Source: Formosa sp. Hel1_33_131 (GTDB taxonomy: Bacteria; Bacteroidota; Bacteroidia; Flavobacteriales; Flavobacteriaceae). Taken from it: a stretch of 32,000 nucleotides of DNA. The stretch's first letter is position 1. Every line of letters begins with the position of its first letter. The notes below the pieces were generated by a model. It saw only the letters and a list, made by a program, of their open reading frames with translations, searched no databases and was not told the DNA's origin. Shown piece after piece: positions 458 to 28,890 of this stretch. The stretch is taken from contig NZ_CP017260.1 of NCBI RefSeq assembly GCF_001735745.1, forward strand, positions 1,500,001 to 1,532,000. Direction: 5' to 3'. A program made the position numbers and the translations under genes.

Positions 458-1387
458 TTAATAAATTAAAGGTAGTGATTTTTTATCACTGCCTTTTTTG
501 TTTTTATATTGTTTTCTTTTGATTGTATTTTGTTTATGCATTTGTTTAGGCGTTAACATATAATTTGATAAATGGGGTCTAAAATCATTATATATTTTTA
601 TTGAATTTTGCACCAATTTACCTTTAGTTTCAAGGTTAGTATCGTATTTATCAATATCAAATTCCTGCTTTAAAATACCATTTACACGCTCTGCAATTGC
701 ATTTTCATAAGGGTCATATTTCTCAGTCATACTTGGTTTAATATTGTTTACATCTAGTGTTTTTTGATATTCATTTGAACAATACTGTAGTCCTCTATCA
801 GAATGATGAATAATAGGTTCTTTCGTATAGTTTCTGTTTTTTAGTGCCATCTCTAAAGCATTTAAAGACCCTTTAACACTTAAACTATCGGACACATTAT
901 AACCCATGATTTTCTTGGAATACGCATCTGTTATTAATGATAAATAACTTGGATTCCTCCTATTTCCTATATAAGTAATATCACTTACCCAAACCTGTTC
1001 TGGACGTATAAACTCTAATTTTTTAATCTGATTTTTATGTTTTCTAAATCGATGATGAGAGTTTGTGGTAATGTGATATTTCTTTTTAGGCTTAATCAAT
1101 AACCGATTTGCTCTTAGTATTTTAAATAATTTATCTCTGCCAACTCCAAGCTCTTTTAAGTCTTCTTTTAATAAATAATACAATTTCCTTGTACCAATTT
1201 TTGGCATGATAATACGTTTTGATTTCACTAATTCTATCACTTTAAAACTTAATTGAAGTTTTTCTTTGGTGGATTTAATAGATCGATAATAAACCTGTCT
1301 ATGAACCCCAAGTAACTCACAGGTAGCTGTTATGCTTTGTTTGTGTTGACTCGAGAAGTCTTTTATTACTTGGGTTCTTGCTTTTTT
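458..1387 (-). CDS. IS3-family transposase OrfB (rve/DDE integrase core), expressed as an OrfAB fusion by -1 frameshifting
   Basis: The ORF-track entry 458-1240 carries rve-type motifs (WVSDITYI, HHSDRGLQY, YDPYENAIAER). The same frame stays open upstream to the slippery site and reads ...ITATCELLGVHRQVYYRSIKS, an HTH_21-like segment. It lies in the -1 frame relative to orfA. Confidence 0.88.
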   Translation of the reverse strand, partial: KKARTQVIKDFSSQHKQSITATCELLGVHRQVYYRSIKSTKEKLQLSFKVIELVKSKRIIMPKIGTRKLYYLLKEDLKELGVGRDKLFKILRANRLLIKPKKKYHITTNSHHRFRKHKNQIKKLEFIRPEQVWVSDITYIGNRRNPSYLSLITDAYSKKIMGYNVSDSLSVKGSLNALEMALKNRNYTKEPIIHHSDRGLQYCSNEYQKTLDVNNIKPSMTEKYDPYENAIAERVNGILKQEFDIDKYDTNLETKGKLVQNSIKIYNDFRPHLSNYMLTPKQMHKQNTIKRKQYKNKKGSDKKSLPLIY

Positions 1388-1761
1388 CTGATAGGAATAT
1401 TGAACTCTTTTTCTGCAATATCTATCATCATATCAAACAAAATAGCTTTCTTATCCGCTCTTTCTGCTAAATATTCCGCCCTGTTTTTTTGCTTCTCAAG
1501 CAATTTAACTTGTTGTTCTAATTCTAAAATACGTTGTTCTGGTGTTTTAGACATACCTTGTTGAATTGTATATTGATAATCAAAGTTACCATATTTTTTT
1601 AACCAATTCCGAACTGTAGAAGCTGCTTGAATTCCATACCTGTCTAAAGCACCTGTTGTGGTTAATAATCCTTGCTCAATTTCTTGTACAATTTGTAGTT
1701 TTAAGCTTAAACTGTAATCTTTCTGTGTTCGCTTTTTGTAAGTTGAACCTTGTGTTTCCAT
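1366..1761 (-). CDS. IS3-family transposase OrfA (HTH DNA-binding part with a leucine-zipper-like C-terminus)
   Basis: This is a 131-aa ORF. The segment LSLKLQIVQEIEQGLLTTTGALDRYGIQAASTVRNWLKKY is a typical IS3 OrfA helix-turn-helix. The ORF ends just after the slippery site. Confidence 0.9.
   Translation of the reverse strand: METQGSTYKKRTQKDYSLSLKLQIVQEIEQGLLTTTGALDRYGIQAASTVRNWLKKYGNFDYQYTIQQGMSKTPEQRILELEQQVKLLEKQKNRAEYLAERADKKAILFDMMIDIAEKEFNIPIRKKQEPK
1381..1387 (-). promoter_or_regulatory. Programmed -1 ribosomal frameshift heptamer A AAA AAG
   Basis: On the minus strand the orfA codons are AGA AAA AAG (R K K). This is the X XXY YYZ pattern in the zero frame. It lies 5 codons before the orfA stop, and orfB is open in the -1 frame from here. 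Confidence 0.75.
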
Positions 1762-1790
1762 AATTAAATAGTGTTAGGTGTAACGCTATT

Positions 1791-2372
1791 TTAGGACGGG
1801 ACAAAAAGTAAAAACAAAAGACCATTTATTTTGTCACCAAGAGTTTTCCTTAGTATAGAAAATGCTTTTGTAATATGACCTTCTACAGATTTTGTGGAAA
1901 TATTTAAATAGTCTGCAATTTCTATATTGGTGAGTCCTTCATACTTACTTAATAAAAAGGTTTCCTTACATTTAGGAGGCAGGTTTTGAATTTCTTTTTT
2001 AACGAGCTTTATTAACCGCTCCAATGATTTTTCATCTTCTTCCTCCACAATGAAACTCAAGGCATCGATGTGTTTTTTTTCTAAGGCTAAAACGTTTTTT
2101 TGTTTTCTATATTGATCAATAAATTCATTGTAAACAGATTTATATAAATAGCTTTTAAAATTAAAATCATCTTTAAGTTTTTGACGTATTTTCCAAATTC
2201 TGATAAATACATTCTGAACAATATCTTCAGATAAATCATGGTCATTTGTAAGGCTAAACGCATAAAGACAAAGTTTATGATGGTAGCTGTCTATTAAAAA
2301 AGTATACGCTTTTGGCTCTCCTTTTTTTAGAGATTTCAGAAAAGAAATTTGATTTATAAAGATAGTAGGCAT
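1791..2372 (-). CDS. ECF-type RNA polymerase sigma-70 factor (FecI/PUL-associated type)
   Basis: The 193-aa product has a region 2 (DIVQNVFIRIW) and a region 4 HTH (LPPKCKETFLLSKYEGLTNIEIADYLNISTKSVEGHITKA). Its last 4 codons and its stop codon lie inside the IS right inverted repeat. Confidence 0.9.
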   Translation of the reverse strand: MPTIFINQISFLKSLKKGEPKAYTFLIDSYHHKLCLYAFSLTNDHDLSEDIVQNVFIRIWKIRQKLKDDFNFKSYLYKSVYNEFIDQYRKQKNVLALEKKHIDALSFIVEEEDEKSLERLIKLVKKEIQNLPPKCKETFLLSKYEGLTNIEIADYLNISTKSVEGHITKAFSILRKTLGDKINGLLFLLFVPS

Positions 2373-7233: not shown

Positions 7234-8781
7234 ATGAAAAAAATTAAATATTTATTAAGTCTCATAACGCTTGTTGTATTGTTTACGAGCAGCTGTTCAG
7301 AAGAATTTTTAGAAGTTGAACCAAAAGGTGCCCAAACGGCAGCTACTTTTTTCAAAACAGAAACGGACGTTACTAGAGCGATCAATGCCTTGTATTTAAT
7401 GAATGATTTTCAAGGCATTTATGGCAGGGGAATGTTTTTATATTCTTTAATCGCAAGTGATGATTTTGTGGTTGGAAAATCCAAAGCCCAAATTGAAGAT
7501 ATAAAAAACTTTGTGACTACGGGATCAGGCTCCTACACTAGAGATATTTGGTCAAAACATTATCAAGTGATAAAAAGAGCAAATGACATTATTAATAATG
7601 TCCCTGGTATTGAAGGCGTTTCAGATGAGGTAAAGAATTTAGCTTTAGGAAATGCACATTTCATGCGTGGCTTGGCATATTATCAGTTAGGTATAGTTTA
7701 TGGAGACGATCGGGCAGGGATTCCTATTGTTGATGAATTTACAACGGATTTTTATATTTCCAGACCTGAAAGCGTAACAGTTACTTATGAATTTGCCGCT
7801 AAAGACTTCACCAAAGCTGCTGCATTATTGCCATTATTTAGTGAGCTTTTACCTTCGAATTATGGGACAGCCCATAAAAATGCAGCCTATTCCTATTTAG
7901 CAGCCGCACATTTGCACAATGCTGAATTTGACAGTGATTCTTGGCAGAAAGTAATTGATGCTTGTAATGCTGTGACCGCTACCCAAGATGTATTGGAACC
8001 TAATTATGAAGACATTTTTAAAATTTCCAACAATTGGGGGATAGAGTACATCTGGTCTATTTCAAGCAACACTACTGGAGGGAGTATTTTACCAGGAGCT
8101 TCTTTAGAGAATAAGGGTTGGGGTAAATACAATGGATGGGGCTATTTTGCACCAACGCTTGATTTGTACGAGTCGTACCAAGTTGGAGACTTAAGAAGAG
8201 ATGCAACCTTATTGGCTTTTGCAAATGAGTTTGTGTTCTTTGGAGAAACTAGAAAATATTGGTCTACTAGGAGTCTAACAGGATTCCAACTTAAAAAGTA
8301 TATGGAGCCTTACAGCTATCCTGATGGAATACATCTGAATGGTAATGGAGATCATCCAACAACGGACTTAAATCCATCCTTGATGCGTTTAGCAACAGTA
8401 CTTCTAATGCGGGCTGAAGCCAAAATCATGCTTGGTCAAAACGGAGATCCAGACTTAAACAGAGTCAGGGTTCGGGCGGGTCTTTCCCCTATAACAGGAG
8501 CAACGCTTGAACATGTTAAATACGAACGCAGAGCTGAATTTGCTGGAGAGGGTGTAGATGGTCGTTTTTACGACTTATGCCGCTGGGGAGATGTCGCTGA
8601 GATTAAGAAAGCATTGAGCGGCAGACAACATGACGACAAAGAAGATCCTGACTCTGGATTTAGTATAATAGAAGTTTGGTCAGAACGAAGTAATTTTGAT
8701 TTAGTGAAACATCGTGTATGGCCCATTCCTCCGAATGTTATTGATAGCAGCTTAGGTCTTATAAAACAAAACGAAAGATAA
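7234..8781 (+). CDS. SusD/RagB-family outer-membrane lipoprotein
   Basis: The gene starts 6 nt after the susC-like stop. It has a lipoprotein signal (LFTSSC). TPR-like SusD features are present (RALYLM, MRGLAYYQLG, LLMRAEAKI, ERRAEFAGEG...DLCRWG). Confidence 0.9.
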   Translation: MKKIKYLLSLITLVVLFTSSCSEEFLEVEPKGAQTAATFFKTETDVTRAINALYLMNDFQGIYGRGMFLYSLIASDDFVVGKSKAQIEDIKNFVTTGSGSYTRDIWSKHYQVIKRANDIINNVPGIEGVSDEVKNLALGNAHFMRGLAYYQLGIVYGDDRAGIPIVDEFTTDFYISRPESVTVTYEFAAKDFTKAAALLPLFSELLPSNYGTAHKNAAYSYLAAAHLHNAEFDSDSWQKVIDACNAVTATQDVLEPNYEDIFKISNNWGIEYIWSISSNTTGGSILPGASLENKGWGKYNGWGYFAPTLDLYESYQVGDLRRDATLLAFANEFVFFGETRKYWSTRSLTGFQLKKYMEPYSYPDGIHLNGNGDHPTTDLNPSLMRLATVLLMRAEAKIMLGQNGDPDLNRVRVRAGLSPITGATLEHVKYERRAEFAGEGVDGRFYDLCRWGDVAEIKKALSGRQHDDKEDPDSGFSIIEVWSERSNFDLVKHRVWPIPPNVIDSSLGLIKQNER

Positions 8782-12556: not shown

Positions 12557-13147
12557 ATGCTAGATAGCTTTTTTAAATTTTTAGAATTAGGACTTTATCA
12601 TATTGTAAGCTTCAAAGGCTATGACCATATTTTATTTTTAGTGGTCTTATCGATCCCCTATCTTTTTAAAGACTGGAAACGCTTGCTGTTATTAATATCC
12701 TCTTTTACCTTAGGGCACACGCTTAGTTTGTTGTTAGGAGTTTATGACATCATAAACTTAAAGAGCAATGTGATCGAGTGGTTGATTCCGTTTACCATCA
12801 TTATCATGGCACTTTATAATGTGTTTACCGCCGGGAAAGCATCTAAACAATCCAACCCGATCATTATATTTAGTCTTGTTTTATTTTTTGGATTCATTCA
12901 CGGTTTAGGGTTTGCCAACGCTTTTGAATCGATGGTAACTGCGAATGAAAGCACCTTATTATCCGTATTGGAATTTGCATTAGGAATTGAGATTGGACAA
13001 TTTGTAATTGTCTTCTGTATCTTGTTTTTCGGATTCTTAGGACAAACTATATTTAGATTCTCTGTTCGGGATTGGGTGATGGTTCTTTCGGCCGTTGTGA
13101 TTGGTCTTATGCTCCCTTTGATTTTTAACAGTCCCCTTTTTTCTTAA
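12557..13147 (+). CDS. HupE/UreJ-family membrane protein
   Basis: The 196-aa polytopic protein begins with the family signature GLYHIVSFKGYDHILFLVVL (GxxHIxxGxDHxLFL) and carries a later GFIHGLGFA motif. Confidence 0.7.
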   Translation: MLDSFFKFLELGLYHIVSFKGYDHILFLVVLSIPYLFKDWKRLLLLISSFTLGHTLSLLLGVYDIINLKSNVIEWLIPFTIIIMALYNVFTAGKASKQSNPIIIFSLVLFFGFIHGLGFANAFESMVTANESTLLSVLEFALGIEIGQFVIVFCILFFGFLGQTIFRFSVRDWVMVLSAVVIGLMLPLIFNSPLFS

Positions 13148-13167
13148 GTAAATAATCACCCCTTTTT

Positions 13168-13590
13168 ATGACCACACAAAAGCAACTTAAATACGACAAA
13201 GCTTATCTTAGAATGGCTTCTGAATGGGGAAAATTGTCGTACTGTAAACGCAAACAAGTAGGCGCGATAATTGTCAAAGATCGCATGATTATTTCTGACG
13301 GCTATAATGGAACCCCTACGGGTTTTGAAAATTTTTGTGAAGACGAAGAAGGCTACACCAAATGGTATGTTTTGCATGCAGAAGCCAATGCCATTTTAAA
13401 GGTCGCTGCCTCCACACAATCGTGTCATGGTTCCACCTTATACATTACCTTATCACCTTGTCAAAGTTGCAGTAAATTAATTCATCAAGCGGGGATTACT
13501 CGAGTGGTTTATAGCCAAGCCTATAAAGACCTTTCGGGAGTTGAGTTTCTTGAAAAAGCAGGCATTCAAGTTGAATTACTAACCCTGTAA
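13168..13590 (+). CDS. Deoxycytidylate (dCMP) deaminase, ComEB-like zinc deaminase
   Basis: The 140-aa product has the cytidine/deoxycytidylate deaminase zinc motifs HAEANAI and PCQSCSKLI. Confidence 0.85.
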   Translation: MTTQKQLKYDKAYLRMASEWGKLSYCKRKQVGAIIVKDRMIISDGYNGTPTGFENFCEDEEGYTKWYVLHAEANAILKVAASTQSCHGSTLYITLSPCQSCSKLIHQAGITRVVYSQAYKDLSGVEFLEKAGIQVELLTL

Positions 13591-18139: not shown

Positions 18140-20653
18140 ATGTATGTACTAAAAAGAGACGGCAGAAAAGAAGAAATCATGTTTGACAAAATCACAGCAA
18201 GAGTTAGAAAACTCTGTTATGGTTTAAATGAATTGGTCGATCCTTTAAAAGTTGCCATGCGCGTTATTGAAGGGCTGTATGACGGTGTGACGACCAGTGA
18301 ATTGGACAATCTTGCCGCAGAAGTAGCCGCAACAATGACCACGGCACACCCTGATTATGCAAGACTTGCAGCGCGGGTATCTGTTTCTAACTTACATAAA
18401 AACACAAAAAAGACTTTTAGCGAAGTCATGCACGATTTATATACCTATGTCAACCCAAGAACAGGAAAAGATGCCCCTTTATTATCTGATGAGGTTTACA
18501 ACGTAATTATAGAAAACAAAGAAAAATTAGATTCTACAATTATATACAATAGAGATTTTGGATACGATTACTTTGGGTTTAAAACCTTAGAGCGTTCCTA
18601 TCTTTTAAAGTTAAATGGTATCATTGCAGAACGCCCTCAACACATGTTGATGCGTGTTTCTATTGGGATACATTTAAACGATTTGGATTCTGCCATCGAA
18701 ACTTACGAATTGATGTCCAAAAAGTTTTTCACCCATGCAACGCCTACCTTATTTAACTCAGGGACTCCAAAACCACAAATGTCGTCTTGCTTTTTATTAA
18801 CTGCAAAAGACGATAGTATTGATGGGATTTATGACACTCTAAAACAAACGGCTAAAATCTCACAATCTGCTGGAGGTATTGGTTTGGCAATGCACAACAT
18901 TAGAGCGACTGGAAGTTATATTGCGGGGACCAATGGTACCAGTAACGGAATTGTTCCAATGCTGCGTGTTTTTAATGACACGGCACGTTACGTCGATCAA
19001 GGTGGTGGAAAACGAAAAGGAAGTTTTGCGATTTACCTAGAGCCATGGCATGCTGATATTTTTGATTTTCTTGATTTAAAGAAAAATCACGGGAAAGAAG
19101 AAATGCGTGCAAGAGATTTATTCTATGCCATGTGGATTCCAGATTTATTTATGAAGCGTGTGCAAGAAGATTCGTTTTGGACCTTAATGTGTCCGAACGA
19201 GTGCCCTGGATTGCCAGACGTTCACAGTGAAGAATTCGAAACACTTTACCTGAAATATGAAGAATTAGGCAAAGGACGTAAAACCATAAAAGCAAGAGAG
19301 CTTTGGGAGAAAATCACCGAATCTCAGATAGAAACAGGAACGCCTTATATGCTTTATAAAGATGCGGCCAACAGTAAATCAAACCAAAAAAACTTAGGAA
19401 CGATTCGTTCGTCCAACCTTTGTACAGAAATTATTGAGTACACTTCACCAGATGAAGTGGCTGTTTGTAACCTTGCGTCCATTGCGTTGCCAATGTTTAT
19501 CAAAGATGGCAAATTTGATCATCAAGAATTATATACAATCACCAAACGTGTGACGCGAAATCTAAACAAAGTGATCGACCGAAATTATTACCCAGTAGTT
19601 GAAGCCGAAAATTCAAATATGAGACACCGTCCAATTGGAATCGGTGTGCAAGGATTGGCAGATACGTTTATCAAACTGAGAATGCCTTTTACAAGTGACG
19701 AAGCAAAACAATTGAATCAAGATATTTTTGAAACAATTTACTATGCCGCCGTGACTGCTTCTATGGAAGAAGCGACCGAAGACGGGCCGTATCAAACTTA
19801 TGAAGGTTCTCCAATTAGTGAAGGAAAATTCCAACACAATTTATGGGGTCTTAAAGATGAAGATTTAAGCGGTCTTTGGGATTGGGGAACATTGCGCAAG
19901 CAAGTACTAGAAAATGGGGTGTGTAACTCTCTTTTAGTGGCACCAATGCCAACGGCAAGTACCTCTCAAATTCTTGGAAACAACGAATGTTTTGAGCCTT
20001 ACACTTCAAACATCTATACCCGTCGCGTACTGTCTGGAGAATTCATTGTGGTTAACAAGCACCTTTTGGAAGACTTAGTGGAACTAGGACTGTGGAACGA
20101 AGGTTTAAAGCAGGATATCATGCGTGCGAACGGATCCATACAACATGTGGATGTGATTCCACAAGACATTAAAGAATTGTATAAAACGGTTTGGGAATTG
20201 AGCATGAAAGATATTATTGACATGTCGCGTCAGCGTGGTTACTTTATCGATCAATCACAATCTTTAAATTTATTTATGGAAGGGGCCACAATGGCTAAAC
20301 TCACGTCTATGCATTTCTATGCTTGGAAAAGTGGATTGAAAACAGGGATGTACTACTTAAGAACAAAGAGTGCAGTCGATGCCATTAAATTTACTTTAGA
20401 TAATAAGAAAAAGGAAGCACCACAGCCAGAAACGGTTGAAGTTGCAGCCGCAGTAGAAACAGCAGTTATAGAAACTCCCGTTGTGGAAACAGCGGTTTTG
20501 GAAAAGCAACAAGAAAAAGCAGCCAACACTGCCGCCAAATTTTCTCAAGAAACAACCGTTGACGTAGCACCCATGTCTGCTGAAGAAATGAAAGCGCTGG
20601 TTCAACAAGCAAAAGAAGCTGAAGGCGATGACTGCCTGATGTGCGGGTCTTAA
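18140..20653 (+). CDS. nrdA: Ribonucleoside-diphosphate reductase, class Ia large (alpha/R1) subunit with ATP-cone and C-terminal CxxC tail
   Basis: The 837-aa product has an N-terminal ATP-cone ([16 protein letters not shown]). Catalytic blocks are present ([30 protein letters not shown]). The C-terminal redox tail is DDCLMCGS. Confidence 0.95.
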
Positions 20654-20665
20654 TACAAGTTTAAA
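20592..20665 (+). repeat. Direct repeat copy 1: the functional 3' end of nrdA plus 12 nt downstream
   Basis: This sequence recurs at 26458-26530. The two copies share a 46-nt perfect core (AAGCAAAAGAAGCTGAAGGCGATGACTGCCTGATGTGCGGGTCTTA). Only 2 differences fall in the 62 coding nt. Confidence 0.9.
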
Positions 20666-20675
20666 TATTATATCT

Positions 20676-20707
20676 AACCTCCTAATGAAACTTAGGAGGT
20701 TTTTTTT
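20676..20707 (+). terminator. Rho-independent terminator after nrdA (current configuration)
   Basis: AACCTCCTAA (20676-20685) pairs with TTAGGAGGTT (20692-20701) around a 6-nt loop. A T-run follows to 20707. Confidence 0.85.
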
Positions 20708-20729
20708 GCGCCGTACAGTTTCATAGCCG

Positions 20730-20765
20730 TGCAGTCTCTACGACCTTTTTACGCTAAGCCGCCCC
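20730..20765 (+). repeat. 36-nt repeat X, copy A (partner at 26390-26425)
   Basis: TGCAGTCTCTACGACCTTTTTACGCTAAGCCGCCCC compares with TGCAATCTCTACGACTCTTTTACACTAAGCTGTCCC at 30/36 identity in the same orientation. Each copy lies just inside one nrdA-3' repeat. Confidence 0.6.
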
Positions 20766-21006
20766 TCGCTGCCGCACGAATCCTTTCGTGTGGTCATAAA
20801 GAAAAGTAACGAGTTTGATAAAAACAAAGAATTGTATTTTAAATTTAAGAAGGAGGTTAGATGAGTAGAAATTATAAGTTTCATAATCCAGAAGAATATG
20901 TTTATAGTAGTGCCGTTGATTATGCAGATCAAAAAGGATTTATAGATGATGTGCTGGTTTTTAGAATGTTAAATCACCACACGAAAGGATTCGTGCGGTA
21001 GCGGGG
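20763..21006 (+). mobile_element. 244-bp hairpin-ended repeat element (MITE-like), copy 1, carrying a Y1-transposase relic ORF
   Basis: By eye this copy is 100% identical to 24129-24372. A 23-bp perfect terminal inverted repeat core, CCGCACGAATCCTTTCGTGTGGT (20772-20794), pairs with 20976-20998. It lies within imperfect ends of about 32 bp (CCCCTCGCTG... and ...TAGCGGGG). Each arm contains its own hairpin, CACGAA-TCCT-TTCGTG. Confidence 0.8.
20861..21001 (+). pseudogene. 46-aa relic of an IS200/RAYT-like (Y1) transposase inside repeat copy 1
   Basis: An AAGGAGG lies 5 nt upstream of the ATG. The product is MSRNYKFHNPEEYVYSSAVDYADQKGFIDDVLVFRMLNHHTKGFVR. The N-terminus resembles the MSRKYKFHNPEG... 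start, and the middle resembles the ...PE(D/E)(W/Y)xYSSAxDYxxxKGLxD... C-terminus, of Bacteroidota Y1_Tnp proteins as I recall them. The catalytic core is missing. The ORF is too short to appear in the ORF track. Confidence 0.6.
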
Positions 21007-21224
21007 ACACTATTAAAGAAAAAACGAGAGTAATAAACAAGAAAAAAATAAATTTAGAGAAAACTAATAGAACTTTTATAAAAAATAATAATGGGTTAGA
21101 CATAGTAATAAGAAACGAAAATAAAAGAGTTTCTACCCCGTATTTTTATCCATTAAATATAAATTCTTGCTATACGTATTTCCATCCTCTACATGGAAAT
21201 GTTGAGCTTTGTTACAAAGGTAAA

Positions 21225-21443
21225 GTGAATTTCGATAAATTTAAAAATGTTTATAAAATTGAATACGTTCAAAAAGAGACAGATGGAATTAGTAAGGTTT
21301 TGTATTTAGATAAAGATTTTACTTTCATTGGAATATCTGAAATATATGGATCTAGTTATGATTTAGATAAAGAAATTAGAGTTTTAGAATCCGATATTCC
21401 GTTAGAAATATTAAAAGTTTTGGTTCCGAATGTTTACTATTAA
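21225..21443 (+). CDS. Hypothetical protein, probably the 3' part of a gene truncated by repeat copy 1 (possible orphan immunity gene)
   Basis: The track ORF starts at GTG 21225. The same frame is open with no ATG back to 20973, which is inside the repeat element. The ORF ends 9 nt before the Rhs frame opens. Confidence 0.35.
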   Translation: MNFDKFKNVYKIEYVQKETDGISKVLYLDKDFTFIGISEIYGSSYDLDKEIRVLESDIPLEILKVLVPNVYY

Positions 21444-21476
21444 AAATAATAACTACGCAATGGCAACATTGGACAA

Positions 21477-23405
21477 TTGGTGCGTTATGGTCAAAACCCA
21501 AACAACAACTCGCAATCTAGAGGCATGGACTATTTAAAATATACCTATGACGACGGCAACCAACTGACAGGAGTAAAGGACCACTATAACAATACCACCG
21601 CCAACAGCATGGGCGGATTTAAGGATGGAAACACCACCCCAGTAGATTATGCCTACGACACCAATGGCAACATGACCGTGGATAAAAACAAAAACATTAC
21701 AAGTATAACCTACAATTATTTGAATTTACCAAAACAAATACAGTTTGACAATACGTCTCCTTTAACCGACGGTACAATTTCTTATGTGTATGATGCTACG
21801 GGAGTTAAAATAGAAAAAAGCGTTTCACAGGTTGGTTCAGGAACGACTTTTACTCAATATGCTGGGAATCATATTTATAAGAAAACGGTTCCTGTGGTTA
21901 ATAACCCCAATCCCCCAACATACGAATTTAAATTAGAATTCATCTCTCAACCCGAAGGTTATATAGAACCAAACGCAACTGGTGGTTTTGACTACATATA
22001 CCAATACAAAGACCATTTGGGCAACATTCGGTTGAGCTACAAACAAGAAGGTTTAGAATCGGTTATAGATGATTTTAATGATGGTACAACAGGCAGTTGG
22101 GGTGCGTATGCATCAACCATTTCAAATGTAAATAACTCCCTGAAAGTAAGTGTATCAGGTGGAGGGTTTGGAGTTTATAAAACACTGTCCGTAACGGCAG
22201 GAGAACCCATTCATATCCGTTTAAATTTAGACAAAGGCACCACAGATAAAGTAGTACTTAATGAATTTTCTCAAGGCAATCTCTCTGATTTGACCGAAGG
22301 CTCTAACAACATCACTTATACCCCCACCACCACAGGAGATTTTCATTTGTTAATCGCTAAAGACCCCACAAGTAGTGATGTGGGCACACAAACGTACTTT
22401 AATGTAGACGACATAGAAATCACAATGGGAGAAGATGAGTTGGTGATTGTAGAAGAAAATAACTACTATCCTTTTGGACTTAAACACAAAGGGTATAATA
22501 ATATTGTATCAGCTAACGCCAATAGTGTGGCTCGGAAATTTGGTTTTGGAGGTAAAGAACTACAAGACGAACTCGGTCTTGATTGGTATGATGTATCTGC
22601 TAGAAATTACGACCCTGCAATTGGTAGATGGTTTAATCCAGACCCATTAGCAGAAGAGTTTTCAGATTGGTCACCATATACTTATGCGTTTAATAATCCA
22701 ATATACTTTATTGATCCAGATGGAATGGCTGCTGTTCCACCAGATGACTATGTGTTCAATGAAAATGGAGATTATGTTAGGAGAGATATTAATAATAAGC
22801 CAGATAAAATTGTAATTGAAAACTCTAAAACTCAAGAAATTCAAGGAAAATATAATTTTAACGACCCAAATGATGTAGTAGATATTAATTCTGGTAAAAT
22901 AAATAAAGTCAGAATGGTTACTCAAAATGAAATTGGAGACGAAATAGTGAAAAACGGTTCAGCTTTAACAGTAGCAAGAGGTGAATCAGCATTTAAGTAC
23001 ATTGAAAGAGAAAGTAGACCTCCAGGTGATGAATCAATATTTTCAGGAATAAGTACGGGAAAACTTGATGGAGTTTCAACAAGCAAGTTAGTGCAAAATG
23101 GCATCGGTGCTTTGACACTTATTAAAGGAAACGGCTCTTCGAGGGATGGAACAGGTTATAATTATAAAGATTTTGGAAACTTTATTTGGGGAAGGTCTGG
23201 AAAAGCCCTTAATTTAGGTATTACTACATTACAATTCGGTGCACACCTTAATAATGCTTTTAATGGTAATTCAGATAATGGTGGAATGAAAACAGGAATA
23301 CGTGATTCAGAAGCAGATCAAAGAGCTATACGAGCCGGATATTATTACCCTAATGGAGTTCCAATTTATAAGGATCCATTAACAAGTTCTCCTAGGGGTG
23401 AATAA
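21477..23405 (+). CDS. Orphan (N-terminally truncated) Rhs/YD-repeat protein fragment with RHS core end and a C-terminal polymorphic toxin domain
   Basis: YD repeats are present (YTYDDGNQLTGV, YAYDTNGNMTVD, YVYDATGVKI). The RHS-associated core is present (YQYKDHLGNIRLSY, NNYYPFGLKHKGYN, YDVSARNYDPAIGRWFNPDPL) and ends in the PxxxxDPxG(L/M) motif PIYFIDPDGM (DPDGM = 22713-22727). An AT-richer tail of 226 aa follows. The frame is open only from 21453 and the first start candidate is TTG. There is no signal peptide or N-terminal trafficking domain. Confidence 0.85.
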   Translation: MVRYGQNPNNNSQSRGMDYLKYTYDDGNQLTGVKDHYNNTTANSMGGFKDGNTTPVDYAYDTNGNMTVDKNKNITSITYNYLNLPKQIQFDNTSPLTDGTISYVYDATGVKIEKSVSQVGSGTTFTQYAGNHIYKKTVPVVNNPNPPTYEFKLEFISQPEGYIEPNATGGFDYIYQYKDHLGNIRLSYKQEGLESVIDDFNDGTTGSWGAYASTISNVNNSLKVSVSGGGFGVYKTLSVTAGEPIHIRLNLDKGTTDKVVLNEFSQGNLSDLTEGSNNITYTPTTTGDFHLLIAKDPTSSDVGTQTYFNVDDIEITMGEDELVIVEENNYYPFGLKHKGYNNIVSANANSVARKFGFGGKELQDELGLDWYDVSARNYDPAIGRWFNPDPLAEEFSDWSPYTYAFNNPIYFIDPDGMAAVPPDDYVFNENGDYVRRDINNKPDKIVIENSKTQEIQGKYNFNDPNDVVDINSGKINKVRMVTQNEIGDEIVKNGSALTVARGESAFKYIERESRPPGDESIFSGISTGKLDGVSTSKLVQNGIGALTLIKGNGSSRDGTGYNYKDFGNFIWGRSGKALNLGITTLQFGAHLNNAFNGNSDNGGMKTGIRDSEADQRAIRAGYYYPNGVPIYKDPLTSSPRGE

Positions 23406-23426
23406 CATCATAAAAAAAGTAAAAAA

Positions 23427-23993
23427 ATGAATACGAGAGTTAAAATTTTATTGTTGATTTTGTTAACATTATTTTGTTCTTGCAAAAACACAAATCAGCA
23501 TTTAGATAAGAAGATTTCAATAATTCAGAACTCAAATTTTGAATTATTTGAAGGTGTAAGAATTGAATCAAGATATATTAAAGATGGCATACATCAAGCT
23601 CCATTTTTCACAAAACAACTAAATAACCGAAATTATTTTTTACCAAATGCTTCTTATTATGGATGTGATTTTGGAGATTTTAAATGTTTAGAAAAGGCTA
23701 CTGAGGTAGGTTCTGATCCAATTGATTTTGCATATGAAAATAATGTGTCAAAAGAAAAGGCTAATATTTTTATTGGAGATTACACAAAAAAAATCATTAG
23801 GGAGTTTGAAAAACTTAGAGTAAGTCAGGTTCTTAGTGATTCTAAAATAGGTGATTGTTTGATTTTTTTCCTGAAGGATAATTACATACTAATTCATGTA
23901 AATATTCCTTCTGAAATTTATAATTCATATTGGAAAACTGAAATTTTAAAAGCAGAAAAAATTAACCAGAGATGGTATTTGATTAAAAAATAA
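23427..23993 (+). CDS. Putative cognate immunity protein (lipoprotein) of the Rhs C-terminal toxin
   Basis: The 188-aa ORF starts 21 nt after the toxin stop, the canonical immunity position. It has a signal peptide with a lipobox-like LFCSC. It is AT-rich like the toxin tail. Confidence 0.55.
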   Translation: MNTRVKILLLILLTLFCSCKNTNQHLDKKISIIQNSNFELFEGVRIESRYIKDGIHQAPFFTKQLNNRNYFLPNASYYGCDFGDFKCLEKATEVGSDPIDFAYENNVSKEKANIFIGDYTKKIIREFEKLRVSQVLSDSKIGDCLIFFLKDNYILIHVNIPSEIYNSYWKTEILKAEKINQRWYLIKK

Positions 23994-24128
23994 ATATAAA
24001 ATTAATTCTAGCCATATGAAGACCTTAATAATGATATTACTGATGAGTTTAATTATTGGATACTAATACCTGCTAGAGAAACTCAAGTTAGAGAAAAAGT
24101 TGAAAACCCTATTAGGGTAGAACAAAAT

Positions 24129-24372
24129 CCCTCGCTGCCGCACGAATCCTTTCGTGTGGTCATAAAGAAAAGTAACGAGTTTGATAAAAACAAAGAATTG
24201 TATTTTAAATTTAAGAAGGAGGTTAGATGAGTAGAAATTATAAGTTTCATAATCCAGAAGAATATGTTTATAGTAGTGCCGTTGATTATGCAGATCAAAA
24301 AGGATTTATAGATGATGTGCTGGTTTTTAGAATGTTAAATCACCACACGAAAGGATTCGTGCGGTAGCGGGG
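24129..24372 (+). mobile_element. 244-bp hairpin-ended repeat element (MITE-like), copy 2
   Basis: This copy is identical to 20763-21006 and lies in the same orientation. Its flanks are unrelated to those of copy 1, and no target duplication is visible. Confidence 0.8.
24227..24367 (+). pseudogene. 46-aa Y1-transposase relic ORF inside repeat copy 2
   Basis: The sequence is identical to 20861-21001. Confidence 0.6.
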
Positions 24373-24515
24373 TAATAGTAAAGGAGAAAGTATAAAGCGT
24401 TTTTAGAGTTTTAAGGAAGATAACCATAAGCTTATTGTTTTAATTTACCATTGTTTTCGTCATTGTTCTGTAAATATAACTGCAGCTTGTCATTCCCAGA
24501 AGCCTGAACCAAAAA

Positions 24516-24725
24516 TCATTTAGAAGCTTTAATTAAATTACTACCAGCAGTAATTAAAATAATAAATCCAAGAATACAAAATACTAGAGAAACTTCTGCT
24601 GCGGTAACAATATCCTCGGGATGCCAATTATATAAAATAGGTAGAATCCTAGCCATGCGAGAAGCTAAAAGCAAAGTACCTGCAATTGTGAAATTAACAC
24701 CAGCCGTTTTAAGTCTTGAGTTCAT
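24516..24725 (-). CDS. Small two-TM membrane protein, hypothetical
   Basis: The 69-aa ORF has two hydrophobic segments. I recognise no homology. It lies inside the accessory segment. Confidence 0.35.
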   Translation of the reverse strand: MNSRLKTAGVNFTIAGTLLLASRMARILPILYNWHPEDIVTAAEVSLVFCILGFIILITAGSNLIKASK

Positions 24726-24878
24726 GTTTTCTAAAATTTTAAAGAGGTTCGGTACAAAATTAGAAAAATGCAGTGCAGTTAAGCTTTTAATTATAGGAAA
24801 CCATAAGTCATCCTATATCACAAGATGAATAGAGTTTTAATATGGGGCGCTGTTTGATGAAGGAAATTAACTTGGCTA

Positions 24879-26180
24879 TTATATTATTTTTATGATTCGA
24901 ATTCGTTTGTCGTGCTTGCTGTTTTCTTTAACAATGACCTCTTTTTTTGAGCCGATATTTTTTGAAATCACCTTATTCATGTTTTTTAAACTAGATCGTA
25001 GTTTTTTGGATTTGGATTCGTAGGACATAGTGGGCTCATAGAAATTTAGAATGTAGGGATTTTCAAGCCCCTTATTTTTAGTTTTCAATAATTCATCCAA
25101 AATATAGTTTTCATTTTCGTTTAGTTCCTCCCTTATAGCATCAATATTCTTAAGAATTTTATCTTTAGTATCTTCAGTCTTTCTCAAAATGAAACATACT
25201 AAAATCAACAAAATTAAACCACCAAAAATTAAAAAGTTAAAAAGTGAATTCGTTGCTGTAAACAAGTCATAGGTCTTTACATTATTAGTTAGAAATTCCT
25301 TTTTAGCAAAAAAAACAGGTTTCTCCTTCCCGTTTATATGGTTATTGGAAACCACCATAAATTGATTTGATGCCGGATTGTATGTAATTGACGATGCTCC
25401 CCATACGAGTTCAGAATTAAAACCTTCGAACTTTTGGATCTTATTATTTTCAATATCTATGAGTAAACAATTTTGTTGTGTGATGATTAAATACTTTCCA
25501 TTATACGGGACTATTTTCACAAAGCTAAGTATCAAATTGGGTTCAACGATCTCACTGATGTTCGTTTCGCCAAGATACTGCCAGGAATGTGAATTTAGAT
25601 CTAACGTCCAGACATCTTGCAAAAGCTTTGTAGAAACTTTTAATTGACCGTCTGTGTTTTTACGAAAACCACCAAAAATATACAGGCTGGAATCTTTTAC
25701 ACTAGCAATTGCTAAACGTCTCGGTTCTGGATGATTTTCATCTGAAAAATAATTAAACTCATACCATTCTTTAACATCGTTATCAAAATATATCAGATTA
25801 TTTGTATTATTAAAAAGCCCATACCCTCCAAAAGAGTAAACCTTTTCTTGGTACTCAAATAACGAGGACTGGTATTTATTTCTATGATCAAAAGAACGAT
25901 CAAGCCTCTTAAATGTATGATTTTCAAAAGAAAACACCAAGCCGATCCCCTTTGAGATTAGATAAGTTTTTTTATTAGTATTTAAATAGTCAAAATTAAA
26001 ATGTGGAAATGTCGTATTATGTTTGATCACTTCAAAATTTTGACCATTTTTAGTTTTATATATCTTTTCACTATCAACAAGATAAAAATAGTCGCCTTTT
26101 TGAAATGCAATATATTGGTCACTAATCAGTTCAGGGATACTTACTAGGTTGATGAGAAGTAAAGTTGCAATTTTGAACAT
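24879..26180 (-). CDS. Kelch-repeat beta-propeller protein with a single TM helix and a ~100-aa cytoplasmic tail (possible winged-helix DNA-binding tail)
   Basis: The 433-aa product has a signal-like N-terminus. Kelch-type signatures are present (KVYSFGGYGLF, SLYIFGGFRKN, DVWTLDL). A TM helix spans about residues 313-332 (LFNFLIFGGLILLILVCFIL). The basic tail is LNENENYILDELLKTKNKGL...KLRSSLKNMNKVI...DKRIRIIKI. Confidence 0.7.
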   Translation of the reverse strand: MFKIATLLLINLVSIPELISDQYIAFQKGDYFYLVDSEKIYKTKNGQNFEVIKHNTTFPHFNFDYLNTNKKTYLISKGIGLVFSFENHTFKRLDRSFDHRNKYQSSLFEYQEKVYSFGGYGLFNNTNNLIYFDNDVKEWYEFNYFSDENHPEPRRLAIASVKDSSLYIFGGFRKNTDGQLKVSTKLLQDVWTLDLNSHSWQYLGETNISEIVEPNLILSFVKIVPYNGKYLIITQQNCLLIDIENNKIQKFEGFNSELVWGASSITYNPASNQFMVVSNNHINGKEKPVFFAKKEFLTNNVKTYDLFTATNSLFNFLIFGGLILLILVCFILRKTEDTKDKILKNIDAIREELNENENYILDELLKTKNKGLENPYILNFYEPTMSYESKSKKLRSSLKNMNKVISKNIGSKKEVIVKENSKHDKRIRIIKII

Positions 26181-26389
26181 AGTTAAATTGAATTATATTA
26201 CTAAATTAAAGCTTTTAAAACAAAATTTAACCCTCCAAATGGATTTATGTGTGATGATTTTAGTGATTTTATAATTAGTGCTTTGTGTAACACCAAGTTA
26301 TGTGAAAACACTAAAAACGGTAAACACTTTAGTGCTTAAGGTTTACGGTTAGTTTATATGCAGACTTACGGATTTAAGGGGGTAGTCCC

Positions 26390-26425
26390 TGCAATCTCTA
26401 CGACTCTTTTACACTAAGCTGTCCC
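26390..26425 (+). repeat. 36-nt repeat X, copy B
   Basis: This copy matches 20730-20765 at 30/36. It is followed by a mini-hairpin, CCC-GAATAA-GGGG, at the position where copy A abuts the 244-bp element. Confidence 0.6.
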
Positions 26426-26457
26426 GAATAAGGGGTTTGTACTGGTAGTGATTGAGG

Positions 26458-26530
26458 AAGCGCTGGTTCAATAAGCAAAAGAAGCTGAAGGCGATGACTG
26501 CCTGATGTGCGGGTCTTAGTAAGGTTTAAA
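26458..26530 (+). pseudogene. Displaced remnant of the nrdA 3' end (direct repeat copy 2)
   Basis: The remnant reads GCG CTG GTT CAA TAA where nrdA reads ...CAA CAA GCA... It then matches nrdA perfectly for 46 nt up to a TAG stop. No ORF lies upstream of it. Confidence 0.85.
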
Positions 26531-26533
26531 ATC

Positions 26534-26567
26534 AAAAAAGCACCTAGTTCAAATTAGGTGCTTTTTT
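26534..26567. terminator. Bidirectional Rho-independent terminator between the nrdA remnant and the convergent PiT gene
   Basis: The structure is an A6 tract, then GCACCTA, an 8-nt loop, TAGGTGC, and a T6 tract. It lies 23 nt beyond the PiT stop codon (26590) on the minus strand and 4 nt after the nrdA-3' remnant on the plus strand. Confidence 0.85.
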
Positions 26568-26589
26568 ACGTAGTCAAATAAATTAGTGT

Positions 26590-28890
26590 TTACTCATTCT
26601 CATCACTGATTTTAGCAGGTTTTACGCTACTGTCATATTCTGTGTGGTATTCTTCTAACAAGCCTGTTGTAGCATTCAACAAGTCTTTGGTTTCTAGTAA
26701 CAAGCTAAAGTAAAGCGTCGTATTTTTCGGACTCGATTCCTCGGTACGGGTTCGTTGTACTTGGGCCTCAATATTAGATTTAAGAATCCCTGAAATCTCA
26801 TTTTTCTGCTCAATAATCGATCCTATTTTTTCGAAGGATTCGGAGTTAAAAACCACAATCGCTTCAGAGAATAATTGTTGTATGGCATCATTGATTTGAC
26901 TCAACTCTTTAATTTGATTGAACTTCAGTTTTTTGTGATTGTTATGAACGTGCTTATGACTCACTTTAGTAATATAAGTCAAGGATTGCGCCATGTCCTG
27001 AAGGTACCCTAAAATAAGAATGTAAAAATTACTGGCCCCGATACTCGATTCATCTAAGTTTTTAATAAAGTAAAAGATATTATCTCTCAATTCATCCACT
27101 TCATCCGAGAGCTTAATAATTTGCTTTTTGTTCTTTTTAAGGGAGTCTAAATTTTGTTGAGCAAGGCCGTTGAAAGCAGCTGCATAAATTTTCTTACCAC
27201 GATTTAGAACGTTTCCAATATTTTCTGCACTCTCAATAATCACCCCCTGAACAGAACTACTTTCTGTTTTTTTCAAACGGTCATCCGATGCAATCTCTTG
27301 GGTCTTTTTTCTATGAACGATGGAGCTTCTAATAAGTAAAGAAATCGCAGTTAAAAGAAGAATTGGAAACATCACTTCTAAGTTCAAGTTTAGCAAGTAG
27401 GCAACCAAAGCCGCGGCACTAAAAGCACTAAAGGCCGTAAAGAACCAACCGCCAATAACATTAAGCACTCCTGCTACACGATATACAGCACTTTCTGACC
27501 CCCAAGCTCTATCGGCTAAGGAAGTTCCCATCGCAACCATAAAGGTCACGTAGGTTGTTGAGAGTGGTAATTTGTAGGAAGTTGCAATAGATATTAAAAC
27601 AGCCGCTACCATAAGGTTTACAGCCGCTCTGACCAAATCAAAAGCAGGCAATTCATGCACCTTGTTTTGAGTTAATTTTATGACCGGTTGTTCAAATTGT
27701 TGTTCAATTTTTTCTTGCCAGGATGTCGGTAAAACATAAGCTGAGAATTTTGAAGCGCCCATTGCAAACCTCACAAAACCACGGGATAATGTATTGGGTT
27801 GAAAACGCTCTTTTGTTTCCCCTTGACTAGACAAATCTAAAGACGTCTTAACAACATCTTTTGCCTTCGTAGAAAACCATAAGGTCACCACCATCACCAT
27901 TCCAGCGCCAAACAACAACCAGTTGTTGGTAGGAACTTTAGAGGCCAATACATCCATTGGAAATTCAGAGGCTGAAACGCCAGATGCCGACCATTCTATA
28001 AATGCATTATAAGCAGCTACGGGAACACCAATAAAGTTCACAAGGTCATTACCCGCAAAGGCCAATGCCAATGCAAACGTTCCAACAATAATAATGAGCT
28101 TATAAATATTCACTTTTGCAAAAGCAATCAGTACATAAGACAATAAAGACCAGATCACTGAACTAATCAATACAATAGTTAAGACTTGCATTTCTAAGAA
28201 ATCTTTCATTGTTTCCCCACCAAGGATATCAAAAGATTGTTTGGCGTATGAAGTTCCTTTCAAACCTTTCATAAAGATAAAATAGGTAATCGCAGTCAGT
28301 GCAATTCCACTAAAAAGAGCGCCTACCCAATGTGCTTTTCTTTCGAAATTATAGGATAATAAGAGCCTAGACACCCATTGCACGAGTGCTCCAATAGAGA
28401 ATGCAACCACTACCGAAAGGAGGATTCCGAATATAATTTGAGAAGCTTTTGACGTATTTATATAATTTACGACTTCGCTAAAATCACCGCCATTTGCGCC
28501 AATTTTAATCAATGCCATTGCGACGGCTGCCCCTAATAATTCAAAGACAATAGAAACCGTTGTTGAGGTTGGCATCCCTAGGGAATTAAAGAAATCCAGA
28601 AGCAAAATATCTGTGATCATGACAGCCATGAAAATAATCATAATCTCGTTGAACATAAATTCACTCGGATTAAAAATTCCTTTTCGCGCTACTTCCATCA
28701 TTCCACTCGAGAAAATCGCACCAACAGCGACCCCAACACTGGCCACAATCATGATGGTCTTGAACGAAATTGCCTTGGAACCAATCGCTGAATTTAAAAA
28801 ATTCACAGCGTCATTACTAATTCCAACGACCAAGTCAGCAATAGCCAAAAAGGCCAAAGCGATAATCATATATAAATAAATATTTTCCAT
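26590..28890 (-). CDS. PiT (PHO4) family inorganic phosphate transporter with a long C-terminal soluble helical extension
   Basis: The 766-aa product has duplicated PHO4 signatures (GISNDAVNFLNSAIGSKA and GNDLVNFIGVPVAAY). The protein is polytopic to about residue 530. A hydrophilic tail of about 230 aa follows, which may be PhoU-like; this is unverified. Confidence 0.9.
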   Translation of the reverse strand: MENIYLYMIIALAFLAIADLVVGISNDAVNFLNSAIGSKAISFKTIMIVASVGVAVGAIFSSGMMEVARKGIFNPSEFMFNEIMIIFMAVMITDILLLDFFNSLGMPTSTTVSIVFELLGAAVAMALIKIGANGGDFSEVVNYINTSKASQIIFGILLSVVVAFSIGALVQWVSRLLLSYNFERKAHWVGALFSGIALTAITYFIFMKGLKGTSYAKQSFDILGGETMKDFLEMQVLTIVLISSVIWSLLSYVLIAFAKVNIYKLIIIVGTFALALAFAGNDLVNFIGVPVAAYNAFIEWSASGVSASEFPMDVLASKVPTNNWLLFGAGMVMVVTLWFSTKAKDVVKTSLDLSSQGETKERFQPNTLSRGFVRFAMGASKFSAYVLPTSWQEKIEQQFEQPVIKLTQNKVHELPAFDLVRAAVNLMVAAVLISIATSYKLPLSTTYVTFMVAMGTSLADRAWGSESAVYRVAGVLNVIGGWFFTAFSAFSAAALVAYLLNLNLEVMFPILLLTAISLLIRSSIVHRKKTQEIASDDRLKKTESSSVQGVIIESAENIGNVLNRGKKIYAAAFNGLAQQNLDSLKKNKKQIIKLSDEVDELRDNIFYFIKNLDESSIGASNFYILILGYLQDMAQSLTYITKVSHKHVHNNHKKLKFNQIKELSQINDAIQQLFSEAIVVFNSESFEKIGSIIEQKNEISGILKSNIEAQVQRTRTEESSPKNTTLYFSLLLETKDLLNATTGLLEEYHTEYDSSVKPAKISDENE

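Follow-up and report, generated by a model that had tools for sequence, protein, structure and literature searches.

What are the two identical 244-bp repeats that enclose an orphan Rhs toxin cassette at the nrdA locus of Formosa sp. Hel1_33_131 (Flavobacteriaceae), and what part do they take in the movement of such cassettes? We addressed this question in a window of 32,000 nucleotides (nt), that is, the whole stretch of contig NZ_CP017260.1 from position 1,500,001 to 1,532,000, read on the forward strand (coordinates are positions within this window unless another contig, labeled L and a number, is named). A first-pass annotation, made from the letters of the window alone, had regarded the repeats as relics of a Y1 transposase and the bracketed block as a possible composite vehicle for toxin/immunity modules. 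The tie between the repeats and the movement of these modules stands, although as recombination handles rather than as the two ends of a composite transposon. Each repeat derives from the gene of a REP (repetitive extragenic palindrome)-associated tyrosine transposase (RAYT), and the repeats probably, although by no means certainly, furnish Rhs arrays with portable homology, at which RecA-type recombination would bring about the gain, loss, duplication, and swap of toxin cassettes.

The repeats, at 20763-21006 (copy 1) and 24129-24372 (copy 2), both on the plus strand, agree in all 244 positions and lie in direct orientation, 3366 bp apart from start to start, with 3122 bp of DNA between them (21007-24128). 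Re-examination bore out both this geometry and the gene content described for the enclosed DNA: a truncated open reading frame (ORF), an Rhs C-terminal fragment, and a 188-amino-acid (aa) gene in the immunity position. At NCBI, an identical 46-aa peptide is filed under AOR28486.1 and AOR28490.1 (Formosa sp. Hel1_33_131), and accessions four apart fit two copies with three genes between them, indicating that the duplication is present in the deposited genome. The same layout of element, cassette, and element recurs in independent contigs from other samples (L132 and L133). An extension of the repeat match to 261 nt at 97% identity was rejected, the extra part being a chance-level agreement (9/17) in A/T-rich flanks, and a 47-nt inverted match of 70% at 13136-13182 was likewise judged to be due to chance.

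Each element is an imperfect inverted repeat at its ends. The left end (20763-20797 in copy 1, plus strand) consists of the tail CCCTCGCTG and a 23-nt hairpin core at 20772-20794; the right end (20973-21006, minus strand) is made up of CCCCGCTA and that core (20976-20998), both in reverse complement, so that its tail reads GGTAGCGGGG on the plus strand. In copy 2, the cores are at 24138-24160 (plus) and 24342-24364 (minus), and within one element the cores are 204 bp apart. Four instances of the core, CCGCACGAATCCTTTCGTGTGGT, are present in the window, one per element end, versus zero expected. Its C-rich strand forms a stem of 9-10 bp (CCGCACGAA and TTCGTGTGG around a TCCT loop, with one G-T pair), and its G-rich strand forms a stem of 6+3 bp; a nested hairpin had been reported correctly, but the length of 6 bp assigned to it had not. 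Folded as single-stranded DNA (ssDNA), the two ends give stable hairpins of -8.4 and -9.2 kcal/mol on the C-rich strand (z -3.6 and -4.6) and weaker ones of -7.5 and -7.1 kcal/mol on the opposite strand, and the whole element folds with its ends pairing together (-43.1 kcal/mol, z -7.2). A search of Rfam over 20400-26700 returned no RNA family. Among 14 copies compared, neither a target duplication nor a conserved target sequence was found, in keeping with what had been remarked for the pair in the window.

The gene remnant between the ends reveals the parentage of the element. A 46-aa ORF (20861-21001, plus strand; 24227-24367 in copy 2) joins RAYT residues 1-10 to residues ~159-184 and runs into the right REP. 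Used as a query in a word-indexed protein search, this peptide retrieved only other relics, and the parents were reached through a DNA scan with the 23-nt core. Pfam likewise gave no match for the peptide, nor for two other relic peptides, all being too short, so that the predicted similarity to Y1 transposases emerged not directly but through a full-length relative, the 188-aa RAYT of L046. This protein passes the Pfam profile Y1_Tnp (PF01797; 33.7 bits, cut-off 23) and the NCBIfam equivalog NF047646, "REP-associated tyrosine transposase" (89.1 bits, cut-off 80). In BLASTP, the 46-aa peptide agrees with it in 10/10 positions at residues 1-10 (E 5e-6) and in 16/26 at residues 159-184 (E 6e-10), the middle remaining unmatched, which upholds the view of the ORF as an internally deleted relic of a Y1 transposase. 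The full-length relatives, Y1/HUH proteins of ~188 aa, contain the motifs HVH and YIHNNP; because only residues 1-10 and 159-184 align, the relic is devoid of both the HVH (HUH) and the YIHNNP (catalytic Tyr) motifs, and the window ORF does not carry the Y1_Tnp fold.

The nearest full-length gene found, in L059, is 89% identical in nucleotides across the 3′ part and shows how the middle was lost. In this parent type, the 12-nt repeat ATAATCCAGAAG stands at both edges of the segment missing from the relic and includes the shared N-P-E codons, just where the junction had been placed (at a shared PE dipeptide); the relic is thus the product of a deletion from one short direct repeat to the other, which removed about 440 bp of coding sequence and left both flanking REP hairpins in place. 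The alignments show each 244-bp unit to be a dead, non-autonomous derivative of a Bacteroidota RAYT gene. By description, the parent probably belongs to subclass 2.6 of Quentin 2018, a group of Bacteroidetes RAYTs with a mean length of 179 aa, the motif YIH[QN]NP, and "atypical secondary structures" that flank the gene and have copies elsewhere (PMC6006769); subclass 2.6 equals Bertels group 5 (PMC5581495). Three of the four single-nucleotide polymorphisms (SNPs) within the relic ORF are nonsynonymous, and we take the ORF to be a fossil. Comparable decayed relics are common, occurring in L001, L023, L051, L079, L098, and L113 and as a 69-aa Dokdonia protein.

In both copies, the relic ATG is preceded at 7 nt by AAGGAGG (20848-20863 and 24214-24229), a motif that the first-pass annotation had singled out. 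Its presence is confirmed, but it was rejected as a signal of the RAYT family, being found at 1/37 RAYT starts; the other 36 Bacteroidota starts have A-rich leaders, and so strong an AAGGAGG appears to be peculiar to the Formosa relic lineage.

Scanning one genome per species with the 23-nt core yielded at least 118 stretches that carry it, identical base for base, from Flavobacteriales, Bacteroidales, Marinilabiliales-type genomes (Marinilabiliaceae), Prolixibacteraceae, and Chitinophaga. In L028, L040, and L046 (twice), inverted cores lie 660-690 bp apart around a full-length RAYT ORF of 182-188 aa, and the suggested likeness of the element ends to REP/RAYT systems is thereby substantiated. 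At 82 of the 118 loci listed, the core has no Y1 coding sequence within 300 bp, and it forms arrays in L054 and L077. The repeat consensus over 136 instances is cCCCCGCTN followed by the core, with a sharp outer edge, and takes the phylum-wide form cCCCCGCTNCCGCACGAATCCTTTCGTGTGGT; on the G-rich strand, a consensus tail, GNAGCGGGGG, lies 3′ of the stem, and since its N is T in 69/136 instances, GTAG is present in about half. Over the best 120 matches, the RAYT proteins share 73-99% identity. So tight a conservation of core and RAYT is out of the ordinary for a repeat and its transposase, and strong constraint or horizontal spread may lie behind it.

A phylum-wide association between REPs and Rhs genes was also considered and was dropped: Rhs-like sequence is present in 5-7 of the 118 listed 8-kb blocks, where the REPs are single rather than punctuating, and the four same-strand REPs of L077 lie among ordinary genes. 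Since Bacteroidota as a whole show no general bond between REP core and Rhs loci, the Rhs link is a co-option specific to one lineage rather than a trait of the RAYT/REP family.

Some full-length RAYT genes occur in arrangements of their own. In L046 (5063-7675), two identical full-length RAYT elements lie in direct orientation, 1.9 kb apart, around two small genes (one of them DUF3592) and adjoin a CdiI-like immunity gene; the bracket architecture is that of the window, but the transposases are intact. L059 (434-3642) carries two tandem full-length RAYT genes with a period of 1413 bp, followed by a further REP and then by an ORF with YD/RHS-repeat-like sequence (weak Pfam match). In Flavobacterium fluviatile (L054, 242-1503), at least nine same-strand REPs, mostly 79-99 nt apart, lie beside a full-length RAYT, an arrangement resembling bacterial interspersed mosaic elements.

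Within Formosa, the distribution of the 244-bp element is narrow. Exact-sequence look-ups with four relic peptide variants led to 56 contigs, in which all copies fall into three loci: two arrays of orphan Rhs toxin/immunity modules and the nrdA site. Array 1 (L119) comprises two large Rhs genes and then orphan modules, with four elements at 7611, 9903, 13841, and 16666, the last of which forms the border with housekeeping genes. Array 2 (L139-L141 and L147) is headed by a 1703-aa DUF6443 Rhs gene and has three elements, one after the head gene's immunity-position genes, one after the last orphan module, and one after a small toxin-antitoxin-like pair; three of its cassettes have no element between them. 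In L119 and L141, the first gene of the array is a full-length Rhs gene with DUF6443. The copies, 98-100% identical throughout, all point in the direction of the Rhs and immunity-position ORFs, and most lie just 3′ of immunity-position genes or at an array edge; up to about nine were found in one metagenome sample. A scan of JGI metagenomes with a probe for the deletion junction gave no new locus (six short contigs, one of them unrelated and the other five overlapping array 2 or the Formosa elements). Given that the arrays make up ~1% of the 2.74-Mb genome, restriction to three loci is unlike the outcome of independent random insertion. No recombinase family is present among the called genes of the window, L119, L139-L141, and L147, and neither an integrase nor a transposase gene was seen beside the arrays (12-20 kb per locus).

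Contigs that differ at these loci do so by whole units with elements as their borders. Three of them (L120, L121, and L128) carry the neighborhood of the window, from DsbD through nrdB-nrdA to Kelch-PHO4, with one element and no cassette, and equal the window minus exactly 3366 bp, that is, the cassette plus one element; L126 and L127 also pass through one element into the right flank. L124 has the right flank and element of the window but a different cassette, the part in common being only window positions 21029-21499. L145 corresponds to array 1 minus the interval from element E2 to element E4 (6763 bp), with one element left, and in L160 the unit of E3, cassette, and E4 is in tandem duplication with a period of 2825 bp. 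At the end of array 2, L130 has the last toxin/immunity pair swapped for the toxin region and 188-aa gene of the window, the left junction of the swap lying just past the Rhs core and the right one inside the element.

The left flank of copy 1 has a bearing on the solo-element allele. A fragment of a repeat termed R2 (20729-20766, plus strand; GTGCAGTCTCTACGRCYYTTTTACGCTAA...CCCT) abuts copy 1, the CCCT being common to both, and in each of the two Rhs arrays the R2 motif (GTGCAGTCTCTACGRCYYTTTTACGCTAA..GTCCCTTATAAGGGAATG) precedes orphan toxin fragments, with sites in L119 (10843 and 15148), L147 (3114), L143 (623), and L131 (3545); it was found in Formosa loci only. With a flank of this array type, the solo allele resembles an array that has shrunk more than it does a naive target.

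Variation among the copies themselves points in the same direction as the unit-sized differences. SNPs at element positions 166, 190, 202, and 213 occur in all combinations, and orthologous copies (E2 and E3) carry differing combinations of paralog-type SNPs between strains, a mosaicism that is the signature expected of gene conversion among copies. Further SNPs lie at positions 1, 49, and 239-241. The perfect identity of the two copies in the window, which had been read as evidence of very recent duplication, may still reflect such an event, but recent transposition is not required, as gene conversion would also account for it.

We favor, with some confidence but short of assurance, a reading in which the RAYT relic supplies portable homology to RecA-type recombination. 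Recombination between two direct copies would loop out the cassette plus one element or, through unequal exchange, duplicate it, and the looped-out 3366-bp circle, or a sister-strand exchange, could re-enter at any resident copy. With the Rhs core as the left arm and the element as the right arm, a double crossover could replace the C-terminal toxin/immunity cassette. The element-cassette-element structure of the window would then be one state, and the solo-element allele the other state, of the same exchange. The comparisons show the relic origin, distribution, and orientation of the elements, the unit-sized differences between contigs, and the SNP mosaicism, and from these we infer both the RecA-type pathway and the direction of events; ordinary homologous recombination is the most economical mechanism. 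End-specific events would also have been required at some time, for the original insertions and for the adjacent deletion into a 209-aa immunity-position gene.

Several observations count against this reading. Two breakpoints lie exactly at element ends and are not producible by crossing-over within elements. At the first, copy 1 continues from its right end straight into the middle of the 209-aa gene, at a GTAGGGG site similar to GTAGCGGGG, the end of the element itself: compared with array 2, the window has a 1879-bp deletion from the right end of the element to this site, and the junction TTTTGTAGGGG followed by ACACTATT of the intact gene is matched in the window by the element end GCGGTAGCGGGG followed by ACACTATT. 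At the second, in L131 and L136, the cassette breaks off at the exact left boundary of the element, which is itself missing, and its 3′ end adjoins a different small lipoprotein gene. Such breakpoints need extra events, be it insertion, adjacent deletion, or end-specific cleavage, and simple insertion/empty-site pairs, which were looked for at both, were not found. Furthermore, L120, L121, L128, L130, L145, and L160 are short-read metagenome contigs with their junctions in repeats, and some of these alleles may be paths of the assembly; the presence in sample ERZ27295489 of both an unbroken solo contig (L126) and, separately, a cassette contig (L135) argues for real solo genomes in that sample. 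Finally, a full-length RAYT may exist elsewhere in the Formosa genome, even though none was seen in any Formosa locus inspected (12-20 kb each) and no Formosa protein is among the best 120 of 2942 matches to the L059 RAYT.

Were the element a passive passenger, that is, a miniature inverted-repeat transposable element (MITE) inserted independently at A/T-rich, dispensable, hairpin-rich cassette borders, shuffling would proceed through Rhs-core homology only. Core-to-core recombination without elements does occur, as seen in L138 compared with L119 (a long-read contig) and in the mosaic of L129; the three array 2 cassettes that have no element between them and the REP copies that lie in ordinary intergenic DNA elsewhere in Bacteroidota also agree with this explanation. 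We nevertheless consider it unlikely, as it leaves unexplained why all copies are co-oriented at sites with no common target motif, why indels match element-to-element units exactly, why the L130 swap terminates in an element, and why a 2.7-Mb genome has copies at three loci only.

Quite unlikely, in our estimate, is an integron-like exchange catalyzed by a RAYT. Here, a full-length RAYT acting in trans would cut ssDNA at the feet of the REP hairpins and join the ends, using two direct copies or one copy and a look-alike site, and a single-stranded circle of cassette plus element would reinsert at the end of another element. Both exact-end breakpoints are of the kind that this would produce, namely, the break between GTAGGGG and ACAC in the 209-aa gene, set against GTAGCGGGG at the element end, and the junction in L131 and L136 at the exact left end; and the window can be described as a cassette plus element inserted immediately 3′ of the right end of a resident element. 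The hairpins are stable and strand-asymmetric as ssDNA, and the phylum-wide exactness of the REP core, together with the highly conserved RAYT, argues that enzyme and site form a functional pair somewhere. However, the look-alike site offers only 4 nt of microhomology, for which replication slippage would also account, the mosaic SNPs place exchange inside the elements, and the Formosa loci inspected, like the best 120 relatives of the L059 protein, contain no Formosa RAYT of full length. We know of no demonstration that a RAYT mobilizes cargo. That the REP ends are live substrates of a trans-acting RAYT, as parts of a Y1/HUH integron-like cassette system that would diversify polymorphic-toxin arsenals, we hold to be very doubtful; if true, it would be the first concrete cellular role of the RAYT/REP pair.

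The composite Y1 transposon originally envisaged, in which the outer ends of both copies would be used jointly and the 3.6-kb block would transpose whole, is highly improbable: a cargo is indeed bracketed by two identical direct copies, target duplication is absent, as expected for Y1 transposition, and L046 has its identical full-length RAYT pair around two small genes, but the empty allele (L120, L121, and L128) keeps one element and not none, look-ups with the immunity-position protein and the relic peptide and the junction-probe scan placed the block at the nrdA locus and no other, the cassette is also present in other surroundings and beside a single element or none, and the left flank of copy 1 is itself of array type.

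The cassette starts, directly after copy 1, with ACACTATT, in the 3′ remnant of the 209-aa gene (21007-21443, plus strand), which contains the truncated ORF of the first-pass annotation, 72 aa long (21225-21443); the gene is intact in L129 (5385-6014) and in L140 of array 2 (7833-8462). The orphan Rhs fragment that follows is a 642-aa ORF (21477-23405, plus strand) with a YD-repeat/core part and then a C-terminal toxin region of ~225 aa at residues 418-642. The Rhs-associated core domain occupies residues 330-417 (~22464-22727; TIGR03696, 64.3 bits, cut-off 32.5), and the ORF has no Pfam domain above the cut-off and no DUF6443 N-terminus. The 188-aa gene in the immunity position (23427-23993, plus strand; 26% G+C) is of lipoprotein type, with a signal peptide containing a Cys, and the cassette ends ...GAACAAAAT before copy 2. 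The features of an orphan Rhs module are present, i.e., a core domain, a variable C-terminal region, a small downstream gene, and no N-terminal Rhs part. Searches of Pfam and NCBIfam returned no family for the toxin C-terminal region or the immunity-position genes; judged by its position only, the 188-aa gene is a putative immunity gene, and the cassette would accordingly encode a putative toxin and its immunity protein.

Around the cassette lies an older island. It is bounded on the left by the final ~75 nt of nrdA and the terminator, the first copy of a 114-nt duplication (20592-20705, plus strand), and on the right by a second, diverged copy of the nrdA 3′ end (26458-26567, plus strand); the duplicates are 91% identical over 75 nt and 84% over 114 nt, lie 5.9 kb apart, and are present in all alleles. 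Between them are the R2 fragment, the element(s), the cassette, a 69-aa ORF, and a Kelch-repeat gene on the minus strand. Judged by this duplication, the island seems to have entered the nrdA 3′ end as an insertion long ago, and it retains no integrase.

Two contigs show layouts that stand apart from those described above. L129, a 16-kb long-read contig, contains the Kelch flank and the window cassette preceded by a whole mosaic DUF6443 Rhs gene, with the 209-aa gene intact and no left element, and would represent a larger array or a rearrangement at the nrdA locus. In L134 (1800-2050), a single short-read contig, the window cassette is followed by an element whose interior is inverted and whose outer tails are both of left-end type (CCCTCGCTG ... 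CAGCGAGGG), with an unrelated flank beyond; it may reflect genuine inversion or conversion involving the inverted ends, or else a path of the assembly. Elsewhere in the window (458-1806, minus strand), an IS3-family-like insertion sequence with ORFs of 131 and 260 aa and inverted ends (TGTAACGCTATTT...) was called from ORF reading, and a copy of its end also closes L129 (1-141), beside the Rhs gene.

Several known systems resemble the Formosa elements in part. Bacteroidetes RAYT/REP pairs have already been described (PMC6006769), and the window elements carry the ends that flank full-length RAYT genes in Bacteroidetes and are also dispersed without a gene; they differ in lacking the catalytic core and in being few and confined to Rhs arrays, whereas the repeats of REP/RAYT systems are scattered in high numbers. 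In Escherichia coli REPs, GTAG lies 5′ of the hairpin (PMC6006769, PMC3733652), whereas the tag GNAGCGGGGG lies 3′ of the stem here. As with REPINs (paired, inverted REPs) and the MITE-like derivatives of IS200/IS605, the unit is short and non-autonomous, has two inverted hairpin ends, generates no target duplication, and presumably depends on a transposase in trans. It differs from these in retaining the first 10 and last ~26 transposase codons in fusion, so that the internal deletion is directly readable, and in a spread that fits recombination or duplication along with cassettes better than transposition.

Orphan modules of Rhs and contact-dependent growth inhibition (CDI) systems, composed of a core fragment, a C-terminal toxin, and an immunity gene, lie downstream of full-length rhs genes, and homologous recombination in the conserved core activates, deletes, or duplicates them (PMC3150448, PMC3967940, PMC4436062). 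The Formosa arrays differ in that a second, non-coding homology block, the RAYT relic, is present 3′ of modules and at array edges. Integron cassettes, which are co-oriented, have at their 3′ ends attC sites that form imperfect inverted-repeat hairpins. In both cases, a cassette plus one site is gained or lost as a unit, and a circular intermediate is possible; in contrast to integrons, the Formosa loci have no integrase or attI-like site in the 12-20 kb inspected, the site is 244 bp long and contains a gene relic, some cassettes are without a site, and exchange is more simply explained by homologous recombination. The rAID-1 immunity-gene arrays of Bacteroidales also have repetitive intergenic sequences, reminiscent of integrons and suggestive of active gene acquisition (10.1101/471110). 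Those arrays contain a conserved XerD-family tyrosine recombinase and immunity genes only, whereas in Formosa no such recombinase was seen in the loci inspected, the repeat is a RAYT relic, and Rhs toxin fragments accompany the immunity-position genes.

In the open-access literature, we found no report that links a RAYT relic, or any MITE, to the boundaries of Rhs cassettes. The abundant, bloom-associated Formosa population, with its coexisting alleles, offers a natural system for testing whether RAYTs cut REP hairpins. For RAYT genes, decay to short relics that are kept as recombination handles in conflict loci would be a fate that we did not find described in the searchable literature. For Rhs loci, the reshuffling of orphan arrays is ascribed to homology on one side only, that of the conserved toxin core; a non-coding block common to the 3′ sides of cassettes would make this homology two-sided and would explain the clean, unit-wise gain, loss, and duplication of cassettes and their transfer between distant loci, including the satellite site at nrdA.

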